Positions 8,238-63,997 of a stretch of 64,000 nucleotides of DNA are shown piece after piece. Under the pieces are notes generated by a model. That model ran no database searches, had not been told where the DNA came from, and saw only the letters and a program-made list of their open reading frames with translations. Within the stretch, counting starts at the first letter, position 1, and each line of letters opens with the position of its first letter. This stretch comes from a virus (taxonomy: Duplodnaviria; Caudoviricetes): positions 4,117 through 68,116 of IMG/VR virus record IMGVR_UViG_3300005937_000414; one strand, given 5' to 3'. A program made the position numbers and the translations under genes.

Positions 8238-8504
8238 ATGAAAATGGAGACGAAGATCACCGGCCTGACGCCGCTCAACGTGAAGGCGCTGAGCGAGGTT
8301 TTCAGCGAGTCGGCCGCACACGGTGCGCTCGTGCTCACGGCGACGACGGCCACCTGGACGAACGACACCCCTCTGATGGCCATCTTCAAGCTCGACAAGG
8401 CGATGGCAGAGCTTTCCTGGAGAGGCCATCCGAGGCACTCTCTGCACGCCGTACGGCGCAAGCTGGTGAACCTGGCCAACTTGCCCGGAAAAACGGTCTG
8501 GTGA
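8238..8504 (+). CDS. hypothetical protein
   Basis: 88 aa (alternative ATG at 8244), SD GAAAGGA. Confidence 0.7.
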   Translation: MKMETKITGLTPLNVKALSEVFSESAAHGALVLTATTATWTNDTPLMAIFKLDKAMAELSWRGHPRHSLHAVRRKLVNLANLPGKTVW

Positions 8505-8743: not shown

Positions 8744-9184
8744 ATGCCGGTGAAAAAAAGAACCGCTCTTAGGCTCAGGTTCGAGCAGGGATTTCAGCGT
8801 GGCGCTCCTGACGAGTGTTGGCCGTGGCTCAAAGCTCGAACGCTCAAGGGCTATGGTCGGATCTATGCCGGACGGCAAAGACTCGCCCATCAAATTTCAT
8901 ATGAGTTGTACGTTGGCTCGATTCCGTTCGGCCTGGAGATCGATCACAAATGCGAAAACAAGTGGTGCGTGAATCCAGCCCATCTGGAAGTGAAAACTAA
9001 AGGCGACCATACGAAGCGTCATGGCCCGCATCGACCGCGTTCTAGCCACTGTAAACGAGGCCATGCGCTGACGCCTGAAAGCCGTATCGAGTGGAGTACG
9101 GGAACCATGTGCCGGATCTGTCACAATGCTGGGAAGCGTGCTCGACGGAAAGGAATTACAGTCGAGGAGGAGCTATGCCTGTAA
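8744..9184 (+). CDS. HNH homing endonuclease with C-terminal Zn module
   Basis: CWPW, IDHKCENKWCVNPAHL, then HCKRGH...CRIC. Confidence 0.9.
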   Translation: MPVKKRTALRLRFEQGFQRGAPDECWPWLKARTLKGYGRIYAGRQRLAHQISYELYVGSIPFGLEIDHKCENKWCVNPAHLEVKTKGDHTKRHGPHRPRSSHCKRGHALTPESRIEWSTGTMCRICHNAGKRARRKGITVEEELCL

Positions 9185-16571: not shown

Positions 16572-17010
16572 TGAAAACATTTCAAGCCCGGCCAAAGTGT
16601 TTTCACTTTGAGTTCGAGATCTGTTCCAGACTGGTTTTCACTTCGTTTTGGGGCTGGGTTTCCGGTTTCGTGAAAACCTGGCGTCCCTTAGTGGTTTTCA
16701 CCAGGGGGGTCGTTCTCACCCCAGAAAACAGACCGGCGTTTTGAAAACGAGGGTACGGGCCACCGCTCGCTACCTGTCGGCAGATCTCGCCGCAGCGACC
16801 GTAGCCAATGTTGAAAACAGACCCAGGCAGTTGTCGGCAATGAAAACAGGGCCAGACCTGGGATCGTTTTCCACGATGAAAACAAGCAGAGCCTACTCTA
16901 GTTATCCAAACTGGCAACAACGGGAACAAAAAAATCCCGCGAGGGATCTGAGGTCAGCTAGCCGGGAGTTTGTCGAGAATGAAAACGGCCGTTTCGGCGG
17001 CCGTGAAAAC
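16572..17010. repeat. array of 11 TGAAAAC/GTTTTCA heptamers in non-coding DNA
   Basis: Copies at about 16572, 16599r, 16634r, 16671, 16694r, 16742, 16812, 16841, 16877, 16980 and 17004. Confidence 0.85.
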
Positions 17011-17356
17011 CGAAGTTACGAAACCCGTTCCGCCCGAAACGTCAGCTTGCGGTGATCGGGCATATCGGGAAAGTCTGCGAGCAACTGTCGCAAGTCGTCA
17101 CAAGTGAAATTGCGAGCGATGCGCAGTCGATTGCGACTCAAGGGAATTGAAGACCAGCGACAACCGCAGTCCTCGGTTCCAGTCCAGAGTTCGTCTCTGA
17201 AAACCTGCCTAGCGACCGTCCAAAGCTCGGACGGGTTTTCAATCCAAACCGTGCCCAGGTCGGCATCGATTGGGTTACTCGATCCTTCGTCGATGATTCT
17301 GTATTCCATGCTTGATCCTTTCAGGTATCCGGCTAGGATCCTGATCCCTCGCGGGA
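16935..17356. repeat. inverted repeat A enclosing the 97-aa gene
   Basis: TCCCGCGAGGGATC (16935-16948) and CTAGCCGG (16958-16965) are exact reverse complements of 17343-17356 and 17329-17336. Confidence 0.85.
17016..17309 (-). CDS. hypothetical protein
   Basis: 97 aa; SD context GAAAGGATCAAGCATG identical to that of the next gene upstream. Confidence 0.75.
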   Translation of the reverse strand: MEYRIIDEGSSNPIDADLGTVWIENPSELWTVARQVFRDELWTGTEDCGCRWSSIPLSRNRLRIARNFTCDDLRQLLADFPDMPDHRKLTFRAERVS

Positions 17357-17369
17357 ATGTTCGCGAGGA

Positions 17370-18315
17370 TGAAAACGAGACTTGATTCAGGGGACTGCCC
17401 TAGGCTTTGTCGGGAGTTAGCTTCCCTTGATTTCGTCCAGTACCGCTTTCAGTTTCGCGGTCATTTCGTCCTCAGGGAAGCTACTAGGTGAGTAGGGACA
17501 ATCGAGATGAATCGTCCCCGTCTCACGTTCGTATTTCACGTTCCACGATCCCCCGTTTCTGCGACCCATGCCGCTCGTGATGGTCATGCCGACTTGATCG
17601 GCATGCATGCACATTGCGACGAACGTCAGACCGCGAAAGCTCGCGGGGGAAACCATTGGACTCCACGCGGTGAAATCCGATCTTTCGTTTTCTTTCTTGA
17701 CGCGAATCACGGTCGTTCGCGGCGACGAAGCCGCTTCCTGAACCATGCCGCTATCTGCCTTGTGCCGGATCGTAATCTGGCAGTCGATCCCGTGCAATTC
17801 AAGCGCAGTGACCGCCCGATTCAGCCAAGTGAAATACTGGCCCAGGATGCGGTGGCCCGTTGTGCAGACCATGCCGATTTCAGCGTCAATCGCCAGTCCA
17901 GGGATTGACTCGGTTTTCGTCCAGTCCAGCATGTATTCATCCTCGCCGTCAAGCGCGAGATCGAGCAGCATTTCATCGCCTTCCTCTGCGATGACCATCC
18001 GGGATTCCTCCCGGATCGGCGGCAGGAAAGTGTCGAAACCTTTCAGTTCCGAGGACTGGTATCCATGCTGTAGCCAGTCCTGCAGTTCACCCTTTGAGAA
18101 GCCTGCCCATTGGGCACGGCTGTAATCGGGGTTTACACACTTTTTCGCTTTCGTCGCATTGGCAGCCCGCTTGAATCCCTTGCGGGATCCCGCTTGCAAA
18201 CTGAGGACTCGTTCCCTCAGGTCTTCCCATTCAATCGTTACGCGGTTTTCATTCTTTTCCATGCTTGATCCTTTCGGTGCCCTTAGGCAATCCCCTGGAT
18301 CAAGCCTCGTTTTCA
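17370..18315. repeat. inverted repeat B enclosing the 281-aa gene
   Basis: 17370-17404 versus reverse complement of 18281-18315: 30/35 identical. Confidence 0.88.
17417..18262 (-). CDS. probable AAA+ ATPase partner (degenerate VWA/CobT-like)
   Basis: Start MEKNEN after GAAAGGA; EEGDEMLLDLALDGEDEYMLDW resembles CobT/VWA-partner segments; adjacent to a MoxR-type ATPase. Confidence 0.6.
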   Translation of the reverse strand: MEKNENRVTIEWEDLRERVLSLQAGSRKGFKRAANATKAKKCVNPDYSRAQWAGFSKGELQDWLQHGYQSSELKGFDTFLPPIREESRMVIAEEGDEMLLDLALDGEDEYMLDWTKTESIPGLAIDAEIGMVCTTGHRILGQYFTWLNRAVTALELHGIDCQITIRHKADSGMVQEAASSPRTTVIRVKKENERSDFTAWSPMVSPASFRGLTFVAMCMHADQVGMTITSGMGRRNGGSWNVKYERETGTIHLDCPYSPSSFPEDEMTAKLKAVLDEIKGS

Positions 18316-19888
18316 AAGTGCACAACACGTCGTTCCCGCTTTGTGAAATCCCCCCGATACCCTGAGGGAATTTCAAGTGTTGCCTAGGGTGAAACTAGCG
18401 CTTGACGTTCCGGTAGGCGAGCAACTCCTCAATCGCCGGATCGATATCGACCCAGATACGACCCATCCGGAAGCGGTCAAGCGTTGCGAAGTCGAGGGCT
18501 TTGCGACCCTTGAAAACGCGATTAGCGCCGCTTCCCCAGGTGTTGGCGGTTGCGGCCGCGATGTAATCCAAATGCTTGTCTACGGTCTTACCCGAAGTCG
18601 TATTGAACATTTGATCGGATTCCATCGCGTTGTTGATCAGGATCAGCATTGAAGCGTCGGCCGAGTCGATTTCATCGAAGTTGAAGAAACCGCCGTTACA
18701 GAAACGATCCTGATACTCGGACGAAACGTATCCACCACCTTCACCCTTCGTGATCGCAAGCAACTGATTCGCAAGCGTCATTTTCAGGTTCGGGTCATCG
18801 GGGAAAAGTTCGTCCAGGTCGCTCCGTCCGAGCAGCGCCGAAAGTGCAATTGCTTGATCGACTCCCGCAATCGTATTGCGTCCGAGCAAGTCGCCACGAG
18901 TAGCACCGGATGACATTGCCGCTTCCCCGTAGGGAAGATCCATGAAATCAGCCAGTTGCTTGACCAAGTGGGACTTACCGGTACCCGCAGGCCCGCAGAG
19001 ATAAATCGGCTGACGGCACTGCGCATACACAAACGCTAGCCCGAACATTTCATGCAATTTCTCCGTCCTACCCGTGTCCTTACGGACAATCGTAGTGGGC
19101 AGATCGAGAGTTTTTGCAATGTCACGGGACACTTGCTTGAAATCGACCTGAGGGATGTTGAAATCCCGCTTTGCACCGTCGGGCCAATCGATGGTCATCG
19201 TGGCCAAACAGGTATCGGCCGAAAGACCGCCAACAGGGATCAGGTTCCCGGCCGCGTTGAACGGGCGGATACTGATTTTGTCGATGTAGCGGTCATCCTT
19301 TTCACGCCGGTCACACTCCACGCGGATTTCACGAGCACGGGCAACGAACTTGTCGAGTTCGCTGACCGCGCGCACTTTCGATCCAGCCTGGGGCTTCGGC
19401 GTTTCCCTTTCGTCCTCAGGTTCGGGTTGAACCTCGATTTCCGGCACGCCCCGTCCGCCATCGAAAACGAAGGGTTCGGGGGGTGTGACAATCGGCGTTT
19501 CCGGAACGGGCGACGGGGAGATTTCCCCGCGTTGCATCGCGTTGTAAATCCGCGAGACATGCTGTTCCAGCATGACCAGTTGCTCCCAAATGGGCTTCCG
19601 CTCGCGCTTCGGCCCACCCGGTACCGGATTCTCCACGTTCGCACTGAAAACCATCGGGGGAGTCTGCGACTCCACGAGCGGCCGCAAAGCAGTGACCGCT
19701 TCCCTTTCGGTTTTTCTAGCGAGGTAGAGATCCCGGATCATTCCGACCTGAGTCGTTGATCCCGCGAGCATGATGCGATTGCGATTCATGTAGTTAGTCC
19801 TTTCGTGACTGAGTGATCCTACGTTTGTCGGATACCTCAGGGGCACGAAGGGATTTCACAAAGCGGGAAACAACGGGATGTGCACTTT
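18315..19888. repeat. inverted repeat C enclosing the AAA+ ATPase gene
   Basis: Exact blocks AAAGTGCACA, TTCCCGCTTTGTGAAATCCC and CCCTGAGG (18315-18367) versus reverse complement of 19835-19888. Confidence 0.9.
18395..19789 (-). CDS. MoxR/CbbQ-type (AAA_5) AAA+ ATPase with long N-terminal extension
   Basis: GPAGTGKS Walker A, FNFDEID Walker B, AATANTWG, LDFATLDRF; start MNRNRI after GAAAGGA. Confidence 0.88.
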   Translation of the reverse strand: MNRNRIMLAGSTTQVGMIRDLYLARKTEREAVTALRPLVESQTPPMVFSANVENPVPGGPKRERKPIWEQLVMLEQHVSRIYNAMQRGEISPSPVPETPIVTPPEPFVFDGGRGVPEIEVQPEPEDERETPKPQAGSKVRAVSELDKFVARAREIRVECDRREKDDRYIDKISIRPFNAAGNLIPVGGLSADTCLATMTIDWPDGAKRDFNIPQVDFKQVSRDIAKTLDLPTTIVRKDTGRTEKLHEMFGLAFVYAQCRQPIYLCGPAGTGKSHLVKQLADFMDLPYGEAAMSSGATRGDLLGRNTIAGVDQAIALSALLGRSDLDELFPDDPNLKMTLANQLLAITKGEGGGYVSSEYQDRFCNGGFFNFDEIDSADASMLILINNAMESDQMFNTTSGKTVDKHLDYIAAATANTWGSGANRVFKGRKALDFATLDRFRMGRIWVDIDPAIEELLAYRNVKR

Positions 19889-20760
19889 TGAGTTTTCAAG
19901 GTTCGGCGCTGGCATGGGGCTAACTGCGCCCGGCCGACCTGGCGGGAGAATCAACCGCGTTACTAGGTTGCATCGCAATTTCAGTGCCCAAACGATCTGG
20001 TGACCATCGATGCGGGGATTTCGAACCGGAGTTTGAAGCCGTCGGGGAATCCCCCGTTCGCGAACGGGTTTCTCAACCGCCAAGTTTTCAATGATCATGG
20101 TGGGGAATCGCTTCCCCGTGGCCCGCTTCAACGGCCGGGCCAGACCACAGAATACCAGTCCTCCTCTCCCCGCGCGAGGGTGCAGGAAAGCGAATCGACC
20201 GTAGGTCAAAACCGCTCAGAAACCCTCGTTTTCATTCATTGTTGCCTGCCCGGACGAACGGGTGTAATTCCCTCTCACGGCCCCACTAAAACCGCCTACG
20301 GTCTTCCAGTCCGGATACGGTCGTTTCCCCGCTGAAAACATTCATTCGAGTCCTCTATTTTCAAAGCCGATCCAAGCGGGCCGAGTATTGAAGTAGGGTG
20401 GGAGAGTAGGGGTGGGTTTGGGAAGTTGGGTGAAAACCTCCAAATCCCTCCAAATCCCCCTGGGCTCACGATGAAATTCCCCCCTGGATACCTCTGTGTA
20501 CCCTCTGGGTTTTCATTTCAGGCCGAATGCGTTTTCAACGCCGGTAACTAACCGACCCCAGGTCTGTTTCAGGGTGTCTATCCTCTAGGTTTTCATTCTG
20601 GATAACCCTCTGCAGATCTCGGGGATTTTCCGATGAAAATCGAGGTTGTAAGTGCTGGCTTACGAAACGTCCGTTCGATTGCAAGAACAGGCTTCGGATC
20701 CGAGATTTCAGTTTCTCTAAAAACGAGAAAACCGCATGGTTGAGCCAAATCCGGGTGATA

Positions 20761-20895
20761 TCACTCTCATTGAGAGTGAAAATGAAAACATGCGATTTGC
20801 AGGGACTTTGTGACCTCGTGAAGTGAACACGTGAAAATGAAAACGAGACGTACCCTGGGGGGCTTTTTGAAACACTGGATTTTGAAACACTGGAT
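20761..20895. repeat. palindrome and short repeats in the divergent non-coding region
   Basis: TCACTCTC-ATT-GAGAGTGA (20761-20779); GTGAAAATGAAAAC twice (20776, 20831); tandem TTTGAAACACTGGAT twice (20866-20895). Confidence 0.75.
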
Positions 20896-21012
20896 TTGGG
20901 TATTAGACCCAGAGTCTGGGCCAACCTGGATCTAGAAAACCACTCTGGGAAAAATTTTACCCTTTTTGGCTTGTTCTGAACACTTCTCGACCGCCTGCTA
21001 CAATCGGCTGCC

Positions 21013-21273
21013 ATGAGAATCGACCGGCAGGAACAGAACGAGATTTCACGGCGGGTCAAGCAGTGTCTTCACGACAAGCGAAATCCGCTTGAAGATCTCC
21101 AAAAGGCTCAAGCAGCCTCGCACCAGCTTGGCAAGAAATTCCGCGAGTCCCGCAACAGGGACGGCACGTATCCCTCCACGATTTCAGACCAGTACGCCAG
21201 ATCTCTGCGCGAAGTGCAGATCTGCGAGCACGTCCTCGAAGATTTCAACGAACAGAAGGTGAGGGCCGCATGA
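21013..21273 (+). CDS. hypothetical protein
   Basis: 86 aa; TGC-TACAAT -10 element 8 nt upstream (leaderless-type start). Confidence 0.7.
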   Translation: MRIDRQEQNEISRRVKQCLHDKRNPLEDLQKAQAASHQLGKKFRESRNRDGTYPSTISDQYARSLREVQICEHVLEDFNEQKVRAA

Positions 21274-21494
21274 TTCGCCTTTTGCCCCTCTACGACAAGT
21301 TTTCAATCGAGCCGGGTGAGACGACGGAGACGCTCAGGCAGCGGCTCATGCAGCGTTGGGGAATCAATTTCACTCTCACGCTGATCGAGACATCGAACAA
21401 CCGCTATCTGCCCCCCGACGAGATCCTGATCGACAGCAGGGAATATTTCATGGTCACGAGCTACGACCTCCCACTGTCACGCACATCTGCGTGA
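21270..21494 (+). CDS. hypothetical protein
   Basis: 74 aa, ATGA overlap. Confidence 0.6.
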   Translation: MIRLLPLYDKFSIEPGETTETLRQRLMQRWGINFTLTLIETSNNRYLPPDEILIDSREYFMVTSYDLPLSRTSA

Positions 21495-21804
21495 CACACC
21501 CCTGCGTGAAGCAAACAAAAAAGGAGGAGGGTTTCTCAAGCCCTCCTCCAACTCCAGCCCCGTTTTCAATTTTGCCTCGACTCCGTACCTCCTTTGAAAA
21601 AAGAGGGAGGCTCTTCTCTGTGAGCCTCCCTCCCGCAACAACCGCACTTCGGAGGCTACCTCCCGGCAGGTACCGTCCGGACTTCCCTGCCGAGAACCAC
21701 CCTTCCCGCCATCTCCCAGGTCAGGCTCTGGGAATCTATTCCGACTCGTAGACCTTGCCTGCCGAAGCGGCTACAATCCTACACGAGCGAACGAAGGAGT
21801 CAAG

Positions 21805-22002
21805 ATGCCACGCAGAGCGTACTCCAAAGGATCGAGGAAGGCTCTGGCCGCAATGAAAAAGAGATACGGTGCCAAGAAGGGCACCAGTGTGTTCTACGCC
21901 AAGGCGAATCGCTACGGCAAGCGGGGAATTTCAAGAGCCAGGAAGGCCAACTCCGTCTACAGCAAAGGCTCTCACAGAGTCAAGCGCAGGAAGCGCAGAT
22001 GA
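21805..22002 (+). CDS. small very basic protein (MKKRYGAKKG...VFYA motif)
   Basis: 65 aa, no acidic residues; TAGACC-N17-TACAAT promoter and AAGGAG SD upstream. Confidence 0.75.
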   Translation: MPRRAYSKGSRKALAAMKKRYGAKKGTSVFYAKANRYGKRGISRARKANSVYSKGSHRVKRRKRR

Positions 22003-22235
22003 TCTTCGGTTTGAAAACATCCACCCAGAACCTTCCGGACGGCTGGACACCGCTCGATGCCATCGCGGTGATCAAGTGTCTCGATGAAAACGGCATTCCT
22101 GCGTTTTGCATCCGTGCGACCGAGACGCTTTCTTCGTGGGAGTCTCTCGGCCTCTTGCAGGCCGCTGTCGATTCGCAGAGGAGCGCGATCATCGACAACT
22201 TCGAGGACGAAGAAGACGATCCCGCAGAAGAATGA
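21999..22235 (+). CDS. small acidic hypothetical protein
   Basis: 78 aa, ATGA overlaps. Confidence 0.7.
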   Translation: MIFGLKTSTQNLPDGWTPLDAIAVIKCLDENGIPAFCIRATETLSSWESLGLLQAAVDSQRSAIIDNFEDEEDDPAEE

Positions 22236-22426
22236 AAAGATGTAACCGCTTTCTCGGCATGGAGAAGATCGCAGACGGCGAGTTCCAGCCCTACTACTGC
22301 CTCTTGCCCAAAGGGCATTCAGGCCCGTGTGCGGACTGGACTGCCTGGCTGGGCGTGCCTCATCCCGACTTCACGACACCAGGAGTGTCATGCAAAGGCC
22401 AAAAACCCCAGGGCTGCCCTTCCTGA
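22232..22426 (+). CDS. small Cys/His protein (CLLPKGHSGPC)
   Basis: 64 aa, ATGA overlap. Confidence 0.55.
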   Translation: MKRCNRFLGMEKIADGEFQPYYCLLPKGHSGPCADWTAWLGVPHPDFTTPGVSCKGQKPQGCPS

Positions 22427-57538: not shown

Positions 57539-57608
57539 TCTCAGCAAAACAAAGGGACGACGGGTGAAATTTGCCCGCTGGCTTTGCAAGCTGACAAAGG
57601 AGCGTTCT

Positions 57609-57956
57609 TTGAAAACCAAGCTGTTGAAAACGGTTGCTGTCCTCTGGCTTGCGCTAGGGGGCGCAGCCGCACAAGAGACAGCCTTGGCACAGGGCACTAC
57701 GTCGAAGTGGCTGTGGAACGCGTTCATGTGCATCCATCGTTACGAAGGCTCGTGGAGTGCGAACACGGGCAACGGCTACTACGGCGGTTTACAGATGGAC
57801 TGGAATTTCATGAGAGCATACGGCCCCGAGTATCTGAGGCGATGGGGGCCAGCACACAACTGGCCGCCGTCCGTGCAGATCGAAGTCGCATCGCGCGCCT
57901 GGAAAACCCGTGGCTTCGGGCCGTGGCCGAACACACGCAGGATGTGTGGCGTTTGA
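57609..57956 (+). CDS. secreted Rpf-like transglycosylase
   Basis: Signal peptide KTKLLKTVAVLWLALGGAAA; CIHRYEG...NTGNGYYGGLQ...QIEVA...GFGPWP; TTG start after AAGGAG. Confidence 0.85.
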   Translation: MKTKLLKTVAVLWLALGGAAAQETALAQGTTSKWLWNAFMCIHRYEGSWSANTGNGYYGGLQMDWNFMRAYGPEYLRRWGPAHNWPPSVQIEVASRAWKTRGFGPWPNTRRMCGV

Positions 57957-60674: not shown

Positions 60675-61683
60675 CATAGATCCGGTCGCGCTCTGGTCGG
60701 AGTACGTCGAGTTTCCGAGTAACACGAAGGAGGACGGTTCCGAGTTCTCGCCGCTCGTGTTCTGCCCCAATCCACAGCACGACAATTTCAGATCTCCGGC
60801 CTTCCAGGTCAACCTGCGGCTGCCGCTCGTTCATTGCTTCAGCCGCTGCGGTATCGGCGGCACGTACGAGCACGCCGTGGCCATGATTCACGGTCTGTAT
60901 GAAAAGCATCAGGTCAGCGAGGCGACGAACGAGCGTGAGAGGACGATTCGCCGCCGCAAGGCAGAGCGTGAGGCGAGAAAGATCATCCTGCGCGGGGCCA
61001 AGACGAGTGTTTTTACGAGAGTGCACGACGAGAAGCGCCCTGTCGCCAAGACGAAGTATGCTCGCAAGCTGGAGTACGAGCGCTTCATGCCCGAAGCCGG
61101 ACTTCGGTATTTGAAATCGCGTGGGGTCAGTGGCCGGGAGATCTCGCTGTGGGAGTTGGGCTGGGATCCTGAAAACCAGCGGATCGTGATTCCGGGCAAC
61201 GACGAGAACGGCCGCCTGCGCTTTTTGATCAAGCGGGCCGTCAAGGAGAGCCAACAGCCCAAGTACCTGTACACGGAAGGCTTCGAGAAGACGAGCGTAC
61301 TGTTCGGGGCCGACACGGTTCTGAAAAACCCGGCTGGGATTATCCTGGTCGAGGGCAGTTTGGATGTGATCAAGCTCTCCAAGTACGGACTGCCCGCCGT
61401 GGGCATCCTCGGTACCGGAATTTCAGATCGCCAGCGCAGCATCATCTCGAACTTGCGGCCCAAGTCGATTTTTCTCATGTTCGACAAGGACGCTGCGGGC
61501 GTGCGCAACATCGAGATCGCGTACGAGATGCTCAAGCACTACCCTTTGCACGTATGCCGGTACCCGAAAGGAAAATCGGATCCGGCCGAACTGAGCGAGA
61601 AAGAGGCCGAGCACTCGATTCGAGGAGCGATTCCGATTCTGATTTGGCGTAAACGGCTCAGAGAGCGGCAAACTCGGCCTTGA
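60655..61683 (+). CDS. DnaG-like primase (Zn finger plus TOPRIM)
   Basis: CPNPQH...HCFSRC; YLKSRG; KYLY; ILVEGSLDV; FDKDAAG. Confidence 0.9.
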   Translation: MKFRGRDIDPVALWSEYVEFPSNTKEDGSEFSPLVFCPNPQHDNFRSPAFQVNLRLPLVHCFSRCGIGGTYEHAVAMIHGLYEKHQVSEATNERERTIRRRKAEREARKIILRGAKTSVFTRVHDEKRPVAKTKYARKLEYERFMPEAGLRYLKSRGVSGREISLWELGWDPENQRIVIPGNDENGRLRFLIKRAVKESQQPKYLYTEGFEKTSVLFGADTVLKNPAGIILVEGSLDVIKLSKYGLPAVGILGTGISDRQRSIISNLRPKSIFLMFDKDAAGVRNIEIAYEMLKHYPLHVCRYPKGKSDPAELSEKEAEHSIRGAIPILIWRKRLRERQTRP

Positions 61684-61759
61684 TTATTCGTCCCAGGGAT
61701 GGTAGCTTAACCAGACAAGCCTGAATGCCAGGCACCCGACGAAGGAGAACATCACCGAG

Positions 61760-62420
61760 ATGGCACTGAAAAGGACTTCCAGAGACAAGCGGATGCGCGT
61801 TCGCACCGTGCGCACTCGCGAGGAGCGCAAGCGCCCCAGCGTTTTCATGCGCTTGAAAGCGGACGAGAGCTTCCGGGGCGTCGCTCTGTTCGAGCCGGAT
61901 CCCGAAGCGGCCGAGAAGGGTGAAAACCCCGGCTACTTCGAGTATTACGATCACTACGACAAGGCCGGGAACACGTACGTCCCGTGCAGCGGCGAGGACT
62001 GCCCGTTCTGTGCGGCGAACGACAACCCGTCCACCCGCGCCCTGACCGCCTGGTACTTCCCCGAGGCTCCGGACGCGAAGGATCAGATCAAGCTTTTCAC
62101 GATGAACTACAGCACCATCGAGGACATCACGGACGAAGCCGAGGAAGAGGACGGGATTCTCGGCAAGAAGATCCGCATCAAGCGGCTCGATGACCGGGGG
62201 AATTACAAGATCAAGGTACTCCCCGACAAGCCGCTCACGGCCAAGCAGCAGAAGGATCTGCTCAAGCGCCTGGAGGAAGAGGTGCTCAAGGGCGACGGCA
62301 TGGAGGGACTCGTCGTCGCGCAACTGAAAAGGCAGATCGAGCGGCTCAAGGCTCTCGACTTGCTCGAAGAGGAAGAAGAGGAAGACGAGGACGGCGACGA
62401 GGACGAGGAGGAGATCCAGA
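61760..62420 (+). CDS. ssDNA-binding protein (gp32-like), C-terminus interrupted at the junction
   Basis: H...C...CPFC Zn site, aromatic OB-like core, long acidic tail; sequence character changes abruptly after ...GAGATCCAGA. Confidence 0.65.
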
Positions 62421-63997
62421 CCGGCACGCGGGCCGCGGCGGCGGGCGGCGCGTCCGCGCGCGAGCGTCCCGAACGGCTCCCAGAGCGCCCAGCCCTGTCG
62501 GCCAGCCAGGGCGGAGGCACGGGCGGCGACTGGCCCGAGCCCCGCGAAAGCTCCCCGGTCGAGCCGCAACAACGTGTCGGCGAACTCGACATCCGCCTTC
62601 GTGGATAGATGGCCACCGCCCATGCGACGGCGGGCGGCTGCCAGCCGAAGGGCGGCCACGTCCGAGCGTCCCGCGCGCAGGCTCCCACGGGCCTCCGCGA
62701 GCAGGCCCTCGACGTGGAGTCGGTTCGAGTCCAGTTCACCCGCGAGTCGCTGCACCTCGCGGCCGAGCTCGACCGCGCGCGCAGGCGATCCGACGAAGGT
62801 CTCGGCCATCGCGTGGAACGCGATCGCGTCGGCTTCCGCGTACCGGAACCCAGAGCGCTGGGCGAGGGGCCGCGCCTCCTGCATGTGCCCGACCGCGTCC
62901 GCGAACTCGCCCCGGTAGAACGCCGCCGACCCCGCCGTCCGAGCGAGCGACGCCCTCGAACGCAGGTCGCCCTCGTCCCCGGTGAGCCGCTCGGCCCGCG
63001 TGAACCACCGCCGGAAATCCCGACCGCCGTGGGGCGTGAGCACGAACGCGAGGTCGTGCGCCGCGACCGACATCCCCCACCGGTCGCGCGACCGGGCGAA
63101 CAGCGCGTAGGAGGCGACGAGGTCCCGGATCTCCCGATTCGGATCGCTGCTGCCCCAGGCCTCGGAGCGGCGATGGAGCGCCCATGCCTCGCCGCGCAGG
63201 TCGCCTTCCGCGTGGAACAGTCGCCGGGCATCCTGCACGAGCGTTCGTGCCCGCGCCGACCGACCGAGGTCGGACTCGGTCCGGCCGAGGCAGAGCAACG
63301 CGCGGGCCCGGCGCTTCCGATCGCGGATCCGCTCCGCGATCCCCCTGGCCTCTGAGGCGTCGACGAGCGCCTCCCGATGGTCCCCCATCTCGATCAGGCT
63401 CTCGGCGCGGCCGATCAACAGGTCCGCGAGCTCCGCCGGCTCTATCCCTTCCGGCGCCGAGCGGGCAACGGCGAGCGCCCGGCCAAAGATCGAAGCCGCA
63501 AGCCCCGCTTCGTACGCGAACGTGCGCTCCGCCCATCGGCGCAACGACCGGGCGGCGAGCGCCGCGGTCTCGACGGGCGCGCCCCTCCCGACCCGGGAGC
63601 GCCCGAGCTCCCAGGCTCGCTCGCGGTGGTGCGCCACCGACGCGACCGGATCCTCCTTCAGGTCCGCCTCGCGCTCCTCGAGCCACGCGGCGATCGCCAG
63701 GTGCTTAGCCGAGCGTTCGGCGCGCGGGATCGAGCCGTAGGCCACCTCGCGGATCAGGACGTGCTTGACTTCGAGCTCAACCGCGCCGGGAAGGACGCTG
63801 GGCTCTCGCCGGACGAGGAGCCCGCGCTCCTGGAGGACGTCGACGGCCCGGCCGGATCCGCGCCCGGCCGACAGGTGCTCGAGCAACCGGTCCCACGTCG
63901 CCTCGCCCGAGACCGCCGCGTCCTGGAGCACTGACTTCTCGCTCGGCGGCAGCCCGTCGAGACGGGCGGCGATCAGGCGGCGGATCGTGGACGGCAC
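62421..63997 (-). pseudogene. fragment of a bacterial cyclase-associated AAA ATPase/TPR protein
   Basis: TIRRLIAARLDGL...KHVLIREVAY...TPR-like helices; much higher GC; open at the window end and broken at the junction. Confidence 0.7.

Follow-up and report, generated by a model that had tools for sequence, protein, structure and literature searches.

We analysed a 64-kb stretch (hereafter, the window) of an uncultured soil phage, virus record IMGVR_UViG_3300005937_000414, a 68-kb IMG/VR record that is complete by CheckV. A three-gene cassette on the minus strand of this window encodes a MoxR-class ATPase, a DUF7192 protein and a 97-residue protein, and each of these genes is enclosed by a long-range inverted repeat of its own. 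Comparison with related loci indicates that the repeats are, with high probability, RNA helices of the sense (minus-strand) transcript. We further consider it fairly likely that they are helices of the leader-trailer type known from ribosomal RNA (rRNA) operons and that they are probably cut by the RNase III of the host. The cassette lies between plus-strand replication genes, accompanied by an HNH gene, and plus-strand packaging genes, and it is the only clear minus-strand unit amid the plus-strand modules.

The original prediction had proposed three inverted-repeat pairs, each around exactly one open reading frame (ORF), and all three were recovered with the same positions and pair counts. 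In the order of transcription, helix C encloses the ATPase gene. Its 5' strand (19835..19888; all cassette features are given for the minus strand) lies in the 5' untranslated region (UTR) of the ATPase cistron, and its 3' strand (18315..18367) lies in the 3' UTR and abuts helix B. The two strands form 45 Watson-Crick and 3 G.U pairs with 5 other mismatches and 1 gap. Helix C was seen by self-BLAST as well as by RNAfold, and orthologous helices are present in 20 other non-redundant loci. Helix B, around the DUF7192 gene, consists of a 5' strand at 18281..18315, which opens with a second copy of the heptamer TGAAAAC, and a 3' strand at 17370..17404. Watson-Crick pairs occupy 30 of its 35 positions, the others being three G.U, one A.C and one further mismatch, and the helix is kept in the related locus L004 with 94% complementarity. 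Helix A surrounds the gene for the 97-residue protein and has its 5' strand at 17329..17365 (core 17329-17356, with an extension from the minimum-free-energy fold) and its 3' strand at 16921..16965 (core 16935-16965). Its 14 + 8 exact pairs and additional ones add up to 26 Watson-Crick pairs, and the orthologous helix of L004 is formed by 8380-8412 and 8777-8812. Base 18315 is common to B and C, and six of the seven transition mismatches of these two helices are G.U pairs on the sense strand, both as had been noted before.

All arms are intergenic, and the start codons lie 45 (C), 18 (B) and 19 (A) nucleotides (nt) inside the 5' arms as first delimited, the value for B being 23 nt with the shorter arm found by BLAST. 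When the whole window was compared by BLAST with its own reverse complement, C (E 3e-7) and B (E 2e-3) were the top two long-range inverted repeats. Helix A is weaker when taken alone, but its flank-versus-flank alignment scores 31, and none of 2000 shuffles of the flank exceeded 27. The E-values, the shuffles and the conservation described below rule out a chance origin of the repeats. All three helices are also present in the minimum-free-energy structure that RNAfold predicts for the sense RNA of 2981 nt, where C has 39+8 bp, B 34 bp and A 27+7 bp. No Rfam family was found in the 14-24 kb portion of the window. Two terminator-like hairpins were noted at the end of the cassette. One (16985-17004, minus strand) is GC-rich and follows directly on the stop codon of the 97-residue gene, inside loop A. 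The other (16928-16949, minus strand) arises from the near-palindromic sequence of helix A's 3' arm, which it overlaps, and is followed by a run of seven U; the same bases can pair either in this local hairpin or in the long-range helix A. The last arm in L004 has the same T-run behind it.

The ATPase has many metagenomic homologues, and loci of relatives were collected through exact protein look-up and alignment-guided scans of viral and metagenome contigs; a scan of viral contigs with the single ATPase sequence had given no match. Usable flanks and a full-length orthologous ATPase were available for 29 loci with 31-100% ATPase identity to the window, some of them near-duplicates (31-85% for the related metagenomic and viral loci). 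In a flank-versus-flank test an enclosing stem was detected in 27 of the 29, with z scores of 11-26 and arms of 24-57 nt, in line with the expectation that homologues would carry the repeats. L011 is only an apparent exception, as its outer stem lies beyond the tested flank and encloses a small upstream gene as well. About 40 loci that share only AAA-domain similarity had no comparable stem (z below 5); a single outlier among them reached 6.8, with a score of 33 versus 46-68 in the family.

Self-BLAST of each locus yielded 53 stems in 21 non-redundant loci, and as a rule the stems form chains of two to five members that abut or are nested. Five stems follow in a row in L012. L013 and L011 have five and four, respectively, each with one stem nested inside another, four occur in L036 and three each in L022, L031, L014 and L004. 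Crossing helices were not found among the 53 stems, so that the topology is purely serial or nested. The median arm measures 33 nt and the ORF takes up 95% of the loop; the start codon follows the 5' arm by a median of 29 nt, and the 3' arm follows the stop codon by a median of 16 nt. In four complete genomes (64-74 kb) significant inverted repeats (E < 0.05) more than 100 nt apart were confined to the cassette, which rules out a genome-wide habit of these phages. Two statements of the original prediction had to be narrowed. That every gene of the cassette sits in a loop of its own is true in the window, whereas relatives have nested stems and some loops with two small ORFs. That the arms are unrelated in sequence holds between different genes, whereas the 5' arm of the ATPase gene keeps a loose family core, roughly GCTTTnnnnGAAnCCC. 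Homologous small genes (L011 3607-3843, L012 6227-6445 and L036 1065-1268) were observed at differing positions of the chain. They lie nested and upstream of the ATPase gene, within the chain's last loop or within its second one, and each of them has a stem of its own that is unrelated in sequence to the others. It seems that gene-plus-helix units are reshuffled or that helices arise anew around relocated genes.

The arm sequences differ between lineages and their complementarity is kept. In 21 of 21 loci, the cognate 3' arm was the best partner of the 5' arm, with a mean score of 55.8 versus 12.8 for non-cognate arms. The compensatory change that the original prediction had called for in relatives was found: between related loci, 74 double substitutions keep the pairing and 15 break it. 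Strand bias was assessed over 52 stems. On the sense strand there are 1638 Watson-Crick pairs, 77 G.U and 34 A.C (binomial p 5e-5), a ratio of 2.3 to 1 for the two mismatch types, where the composition at four-fold sites of the enclosed genes (T/C 0.82, A/G 0.63) predicts about 1.1-1.3 to 1. In 36 stems the duplex of the sense strand is the more stable one, compared with 11 in which the antisense duplex is (Wilcoxon p 4e-5). Compensatory helices in relatives, the sense-strand excess of G.U over A.C and the more stable sense duplexes agree with the proposal that the repeats act as RNA.

Upstream of helix C we found a boxA-like leader, GAACCTTGAAAAC (19892..19904, minus strand), which ends 3 nt ahead of the first 5' arm. 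A TTGAAAAY or TGAAAA[CT] string starts 10-14 nt ahead of the first 5' arm in 14 of the 21 loci, compared with one of 32 later stems; chance expectation is 0.0065 per locus (P about 3e-26). L031 has the same 13-mer as the window. The boxA of the cyanobacterial 16S-23S spacer is GAACCTTGAAAA (PMC8461337), and GAACCTTGAAAAC agrees with it at 12 of 12 positions. An rrn spacer of the actinobacterium Saccharopolyspora holds the boxA-like TTGTTTGAGAAT, two bases and then TATAGTGGGTGC, the complement of which, GCACCCACTATA, lies directly past the 23S gene of the operon. In this spacer the boxA-like string is thus followed at once by the 5' strand of the pre-23S helix, which closes over the whole RNA, and this order is also seen in the phage cassette. 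By analogy with these operons, the leader may be a boxA that is bound by Nus factors, a reading that we propose tentatively. Taking boxA as a guide to the host led to no assignment: the CTTTGAAAAC matches in a planctomycete genome lie outside rRNA operons, and those in a Bacillota draft, located at the ends of contigs, could not be connected with rRNA. A sigma-70 promoter scan gave no convincing promoter ahead of the cassette, and the TTGAAA of the leader was dismissed as a -35 element since a -10 partner is missing 17 nt downstream of it.

In bacterial rrn operons, leader-trailer helices and boxA are among the defining elements (PMC10250234). The phage cassettes resemble these operons in that complementary flanks pair across the enclosed RNA, several helices occur in series per transcript and a boxA-like element stands directly ahead of the 5' strand; the stem lengths suit RNase III. 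They differ in that the loops hold protein-coding cistrons with ribosome-binding sites instead of rRNA, which makes the cassette an analogue and not a member of this class. Moreover, up to five stems stand in a row, some of them nested, and the element is borne by a phage.

The early operon of phage T7 is transcribed by host RNA polymerase, and host RNase III cuts the transcript into its single genes, leaving duplex ends that are stabilising. The T7 sites are local intergenic hairpins. Here, in contrast, the partner arms lie 130-1700 nt apart across an ORF. A gene's 3' arm is not paired with the 5' arm of the gene after it, and every helix reaches over an ORF of its own, 0.15-1.7 kb in length. 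Local palindromes are few per genome, and none was reported at the junctions of the window's cassette. With regard to the leader, the boxA antitermination element behind the early promoters of T7 (PMC3709561) would be the counterpart of the boxA-like element described here. Long-range pairing of a message's 5' UTR with its own 3' UTR is also known from Bacillus subtilis hbs, where the interaction has 14 bp (PMC5737220), and from Staphylococcus aureus icaR (PMC3868564); in both, it controls RNase action or translation. These are single short contacts that overlap an RNase site or a Shine-Dalgarno sequence, whereas the phage helices have 24-57 bp, lie outside the ribosome-binding site and occur once per cistron of an operon.

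Under the explanation that we favour, the operon would be transcribed into a single RNA whose start lies close to the leader; the chain apparently starts at a single leader element, which fits a polycistronic precursor. Helix by helix, a stretch of the 5' UTR would pair with a stretch past the stop codon of the same cistron, so that the RNA would fold into a row of ORF-containing loops closed by stems of 24-57 bp. Bacterial RNase III needs roughly 20 bp, and the enzyme is nearly universal in bacteria. The host enzyme would cut the long, near-perfect duplexes, and the MoxR-type ATPase, its VWA-like partner and the small proteins would thereby each be encoded by an mRNA of their own. In these mRNAs the 5' end would remain paired with the 3' end, so that both would be shielded from end-dependent RNases, and each single-cistron product could have its own stability and yield. 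Separate mRNA stabilities would suit a complex in which the subunits may be required in different quantities. For NorQ-type AAA+ ATPases, the usual description is a hexamer acting together with a single VWA partner. In rRNA synthesis, the NusB/NusE complex bridges the 5' and 3' strands and boosts processing by RNase III, and the boxA-like element of the phage may recruit this antitermination complex of the host. In the phage itself we found no RNase III, no sigma factor and no RtcB ligase, other ligase families not having been searched. Compared with the original prediction, the serial chain of RNA helices stands, cleavage and end protection are what we infer from it, and circularised mRNAs are not supported.

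A more far-reaching version, drawn from the analogy with rrn operons, is possible but rather doubtful: this lineage of soil phages may treat a protein-coding operon, in both transcription and folding, like a mock rRNA precursor. The antitermination and chaperone complex of the host's Nus factors, seated on the boxA-like leader, would retain the 5' strand up to the emergence of each 3' strand, so that a leader-trailer helix of its own would close every cistron. The cistrons would then be freed by RNase III as closed-loop mRNAs with paired ends.

Several observations weigh against the processing model, and we set them out together. The family member L030 is without an ATPase stem. Concerted evolution of DNA repeats alone could keep the arms complementary; it could thus mimic covariation, and strand-specific evidence is needed. 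The only strand-specific argument is the G.U excess, whose 111 informative mismatches are phylogenetically non-independent. With respect to the leader, TGAAAAC/GTTTTCA occurs in 112 copies in the window, about 23-fold expectation (56 per strand versus about 2.4 expected). The copies stand on both strands, inside genes as well as in non-coding DNA, and have no flanking consensus. For most of them a boxA function is excluded, and the motif may serve some other purpose; the same properties rule out a promoter or boxA function at all 112 sites. The model further presupposes a host boxA that reads TTGAAAAC and a host RNase III that accepts the stems. Finally, transcription, transcript ends and cleavage are predictions from the DNA sequence.

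Among the rival explanations, it is conceivable, albeit unlikely, that the helices form in RNA, close each cistron into a loop and are not cleaved, serving instead to shield the ends from exonucleases, to insulate the folding or translation of neighbouring cistrons or to favour re-initiation on the same cistron. All evidence for RNA pairing counts equally for this explanation, and the helix would bring start and stop codons, at median distances of 29 and 16 nt from it, close together. Known UTR-UTR pairing in bacteria, as in hbs (PMC5737220) and icaR (PMC3868564), modulates RNase access or translation without excision. The rRNA-like layout with its boxA-like leader, however, points to processing. 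In addition, the stems, 24-57 bp long and with few mismatches, are above the minimum of roughly 20 bp for bacterial RNase III, and special anti-determinants would be required for escape. A different proposal accepts the helices and moves them to the other strand: they would matter mainly in an antisense (plus-strand) read-through RNA, since rightward transcription has to cross the cassette on its way to the packaging and structural genes, with the plus-oriented TGAAAAC array at 16742-17004 serving the same transcript. The position of the cassette as a lone minus-strand unit between plus-strand modules would suit this proposal, as would six plus-oriented TGAAAAC copies that point into the cassette and a minimum-free-energy fold of the antisense RNA that also has the three helices. 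We regard it as very improbable, given that G.U pairs and duplex stability favour the sense strand, that the arms track the ORF boundaries and ribosome-binding sites of the sense genes, and that the boxA-like element is sense-oriented ahead of the first arm in 14 of 21 loci.

A function of the repeats at the DNA level has equally little probability in our view. Here, the arms would be recombination sites by which single-gene cassettes are inverted, excised or shuffled, and recombination or gene conversion would keep the repeats alike. Inverted repeats that bracket whole genes are indeed a hallmark of invertible segments, including the G segment of phage Mu and the C segment of P1, and the modular look of the cassettes, with homologous small genes at different chain positions and each with its own stem, would be in keeping with such an activity. 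Serine and tyrosine recombinases (PF00239 and PF00589), however, are absent from the complete 68-kb record in searches whose controls were positive, as the original prediction had stated for recombinases. The repeat pairs differ in sequence and have no common core site, so that one recombinase could not serve all of them. Homologous loop ORFs are on the sense strand throughout the 21 loci, no flipped variant was found among the relatives, and the G.U excess is specific for the sense strand. The arms are also imperfect: the same C.A mismatch persists in L005, L007 and L009, which speaks against gene conversion, a process that would erase the mismatch. DNA inversion had been named as the alternative in the original prediction, and the absence of a recombinase and of inverted loop genes disfavours it. 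Terminal repeats of transposons or miniature inverted-repeat transposable elements and integron attC cassettes were discarded as well, the arms being unrelated between genes and not local palindromes, and no integrase being found.

A full-text literature search gave no report of a protein-coding operon, of a phage or otherwise, in which each cistron has its own conserved leader-trailer helix. The nearest cases in print are the rRNA leader-trailer helices, the local RNase III hairpins of T7 and the single 5'/3'-UTR contacts in hbs and icaR. What appears to be new is the use of rRNA-style processing helices in series on mRNA cistrons, for which the comparative support is unusually strong. If RNase III and Nus factors act here as they do on rRNA, these phages would borrow the rRNA production line of the host to set the boundaries, stability and subunit ratios of their mRNAs. 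This would bear on how operon mRNAs are partitioned, and the helices would be natural parts for insulating genes in synthetic operons. Should even the mock-precursor version be true, it would amount to a general and so far undescribed way of expressing phage genes. The 53 stems with abundant compensatory changes, restricted to this cassette, are unusually clean comparative material for bench work.

The first gene of the cassette (18395..19789, minus strand, loop C) encodes an AAA_5 ATPase of the MoxR/CobS/NorQ class with 464 amino acids that matches PF07728 and phrog_249; no full-length orthologue was found in bacterial genomes. The second (17417..18262, minus strand, loop B) encodes the DUF7192 protein of 281 amino acids (Pfam PF23822). 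Its AlphaFold model has a pLDDT of 83, and the best Foldseek match was the VWA domain of NorD within NorQ-NorD complexes, with E 2e-4 and a TM score of only 0.34. In the window and for the orthologues in L004-L037, the gene of the DUF7192 protein always comes after that of the AAA_5 ATPase. In comparison with MoxR-class AAA+/VWA pairs such as NorQ-NorD and CobS-CobT, the PF07728 assignment is clear, and the match of DUF7192 to the VWA domain of NorD modestly suggests that the DUF7192 protein may be the VWA-type partner of the phage ATPase. The third gene (17016..17309, minus strand, loop A) encodes 97 amino acids and has a 67% identical orthologue in L004; its product had no Pfam or PHROG match. 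The translation-initiation region of the DUF7192 gene, GAAAGGATCAAGCATGGAA (18257..18275, minus strand), comprises, as read on the sense strand, the Shine-Dalgarno sequence, the spacer, the ATG and the codon after it. An identical copy (19 of 19 positions) lies at 17304-17322, at the start of the 97-residue gene. The ATPase gene has GAAAGGA followed by a spacer unlike that of the other two genes. Elsewhere, the window encodes a helicase, DnaB, a primase, several HNH endonucleases, a gpA-type large terminase subunit (TerL) and one tRNA. TerL shares less than 24% identity with the terminase of any deposited phage.

Arrays of TGAAAAC lie at 16572-17010 and 20084-20838, and TGAAATT and TGAAATC, which are related heptamers, likewise rank with the most frequent ones. 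In the distant relatives G001-G003, TGAAAAC is only 2- to 7-fold enriched. A second extended boxA-like string, GTTCTTTGAAAAC, is found at 57604-57616, at the start of a gene that an earlier note labelled Rpf-like, and is followed by TGAAAAC 15 nt later. About 2.4 kb upstream of the cassette (19889-22328) contain many TGAAAAC copies and only ORFs without an assigned family (19856-20209 and 20535-21059); in L004, about 1.2 kb ahead of the ATPase gene are without called genes. The 19889-22328 stretch may have a regulatory function, act as an origin or code for an RNA. At the end of the window, a minus-strand ORF of 779 amino acids without a PHROG match lies within 61658-63997 (minus strand), and the G+C content of these last 2 kb is 71.6%, compared with about 59% elsewhere.

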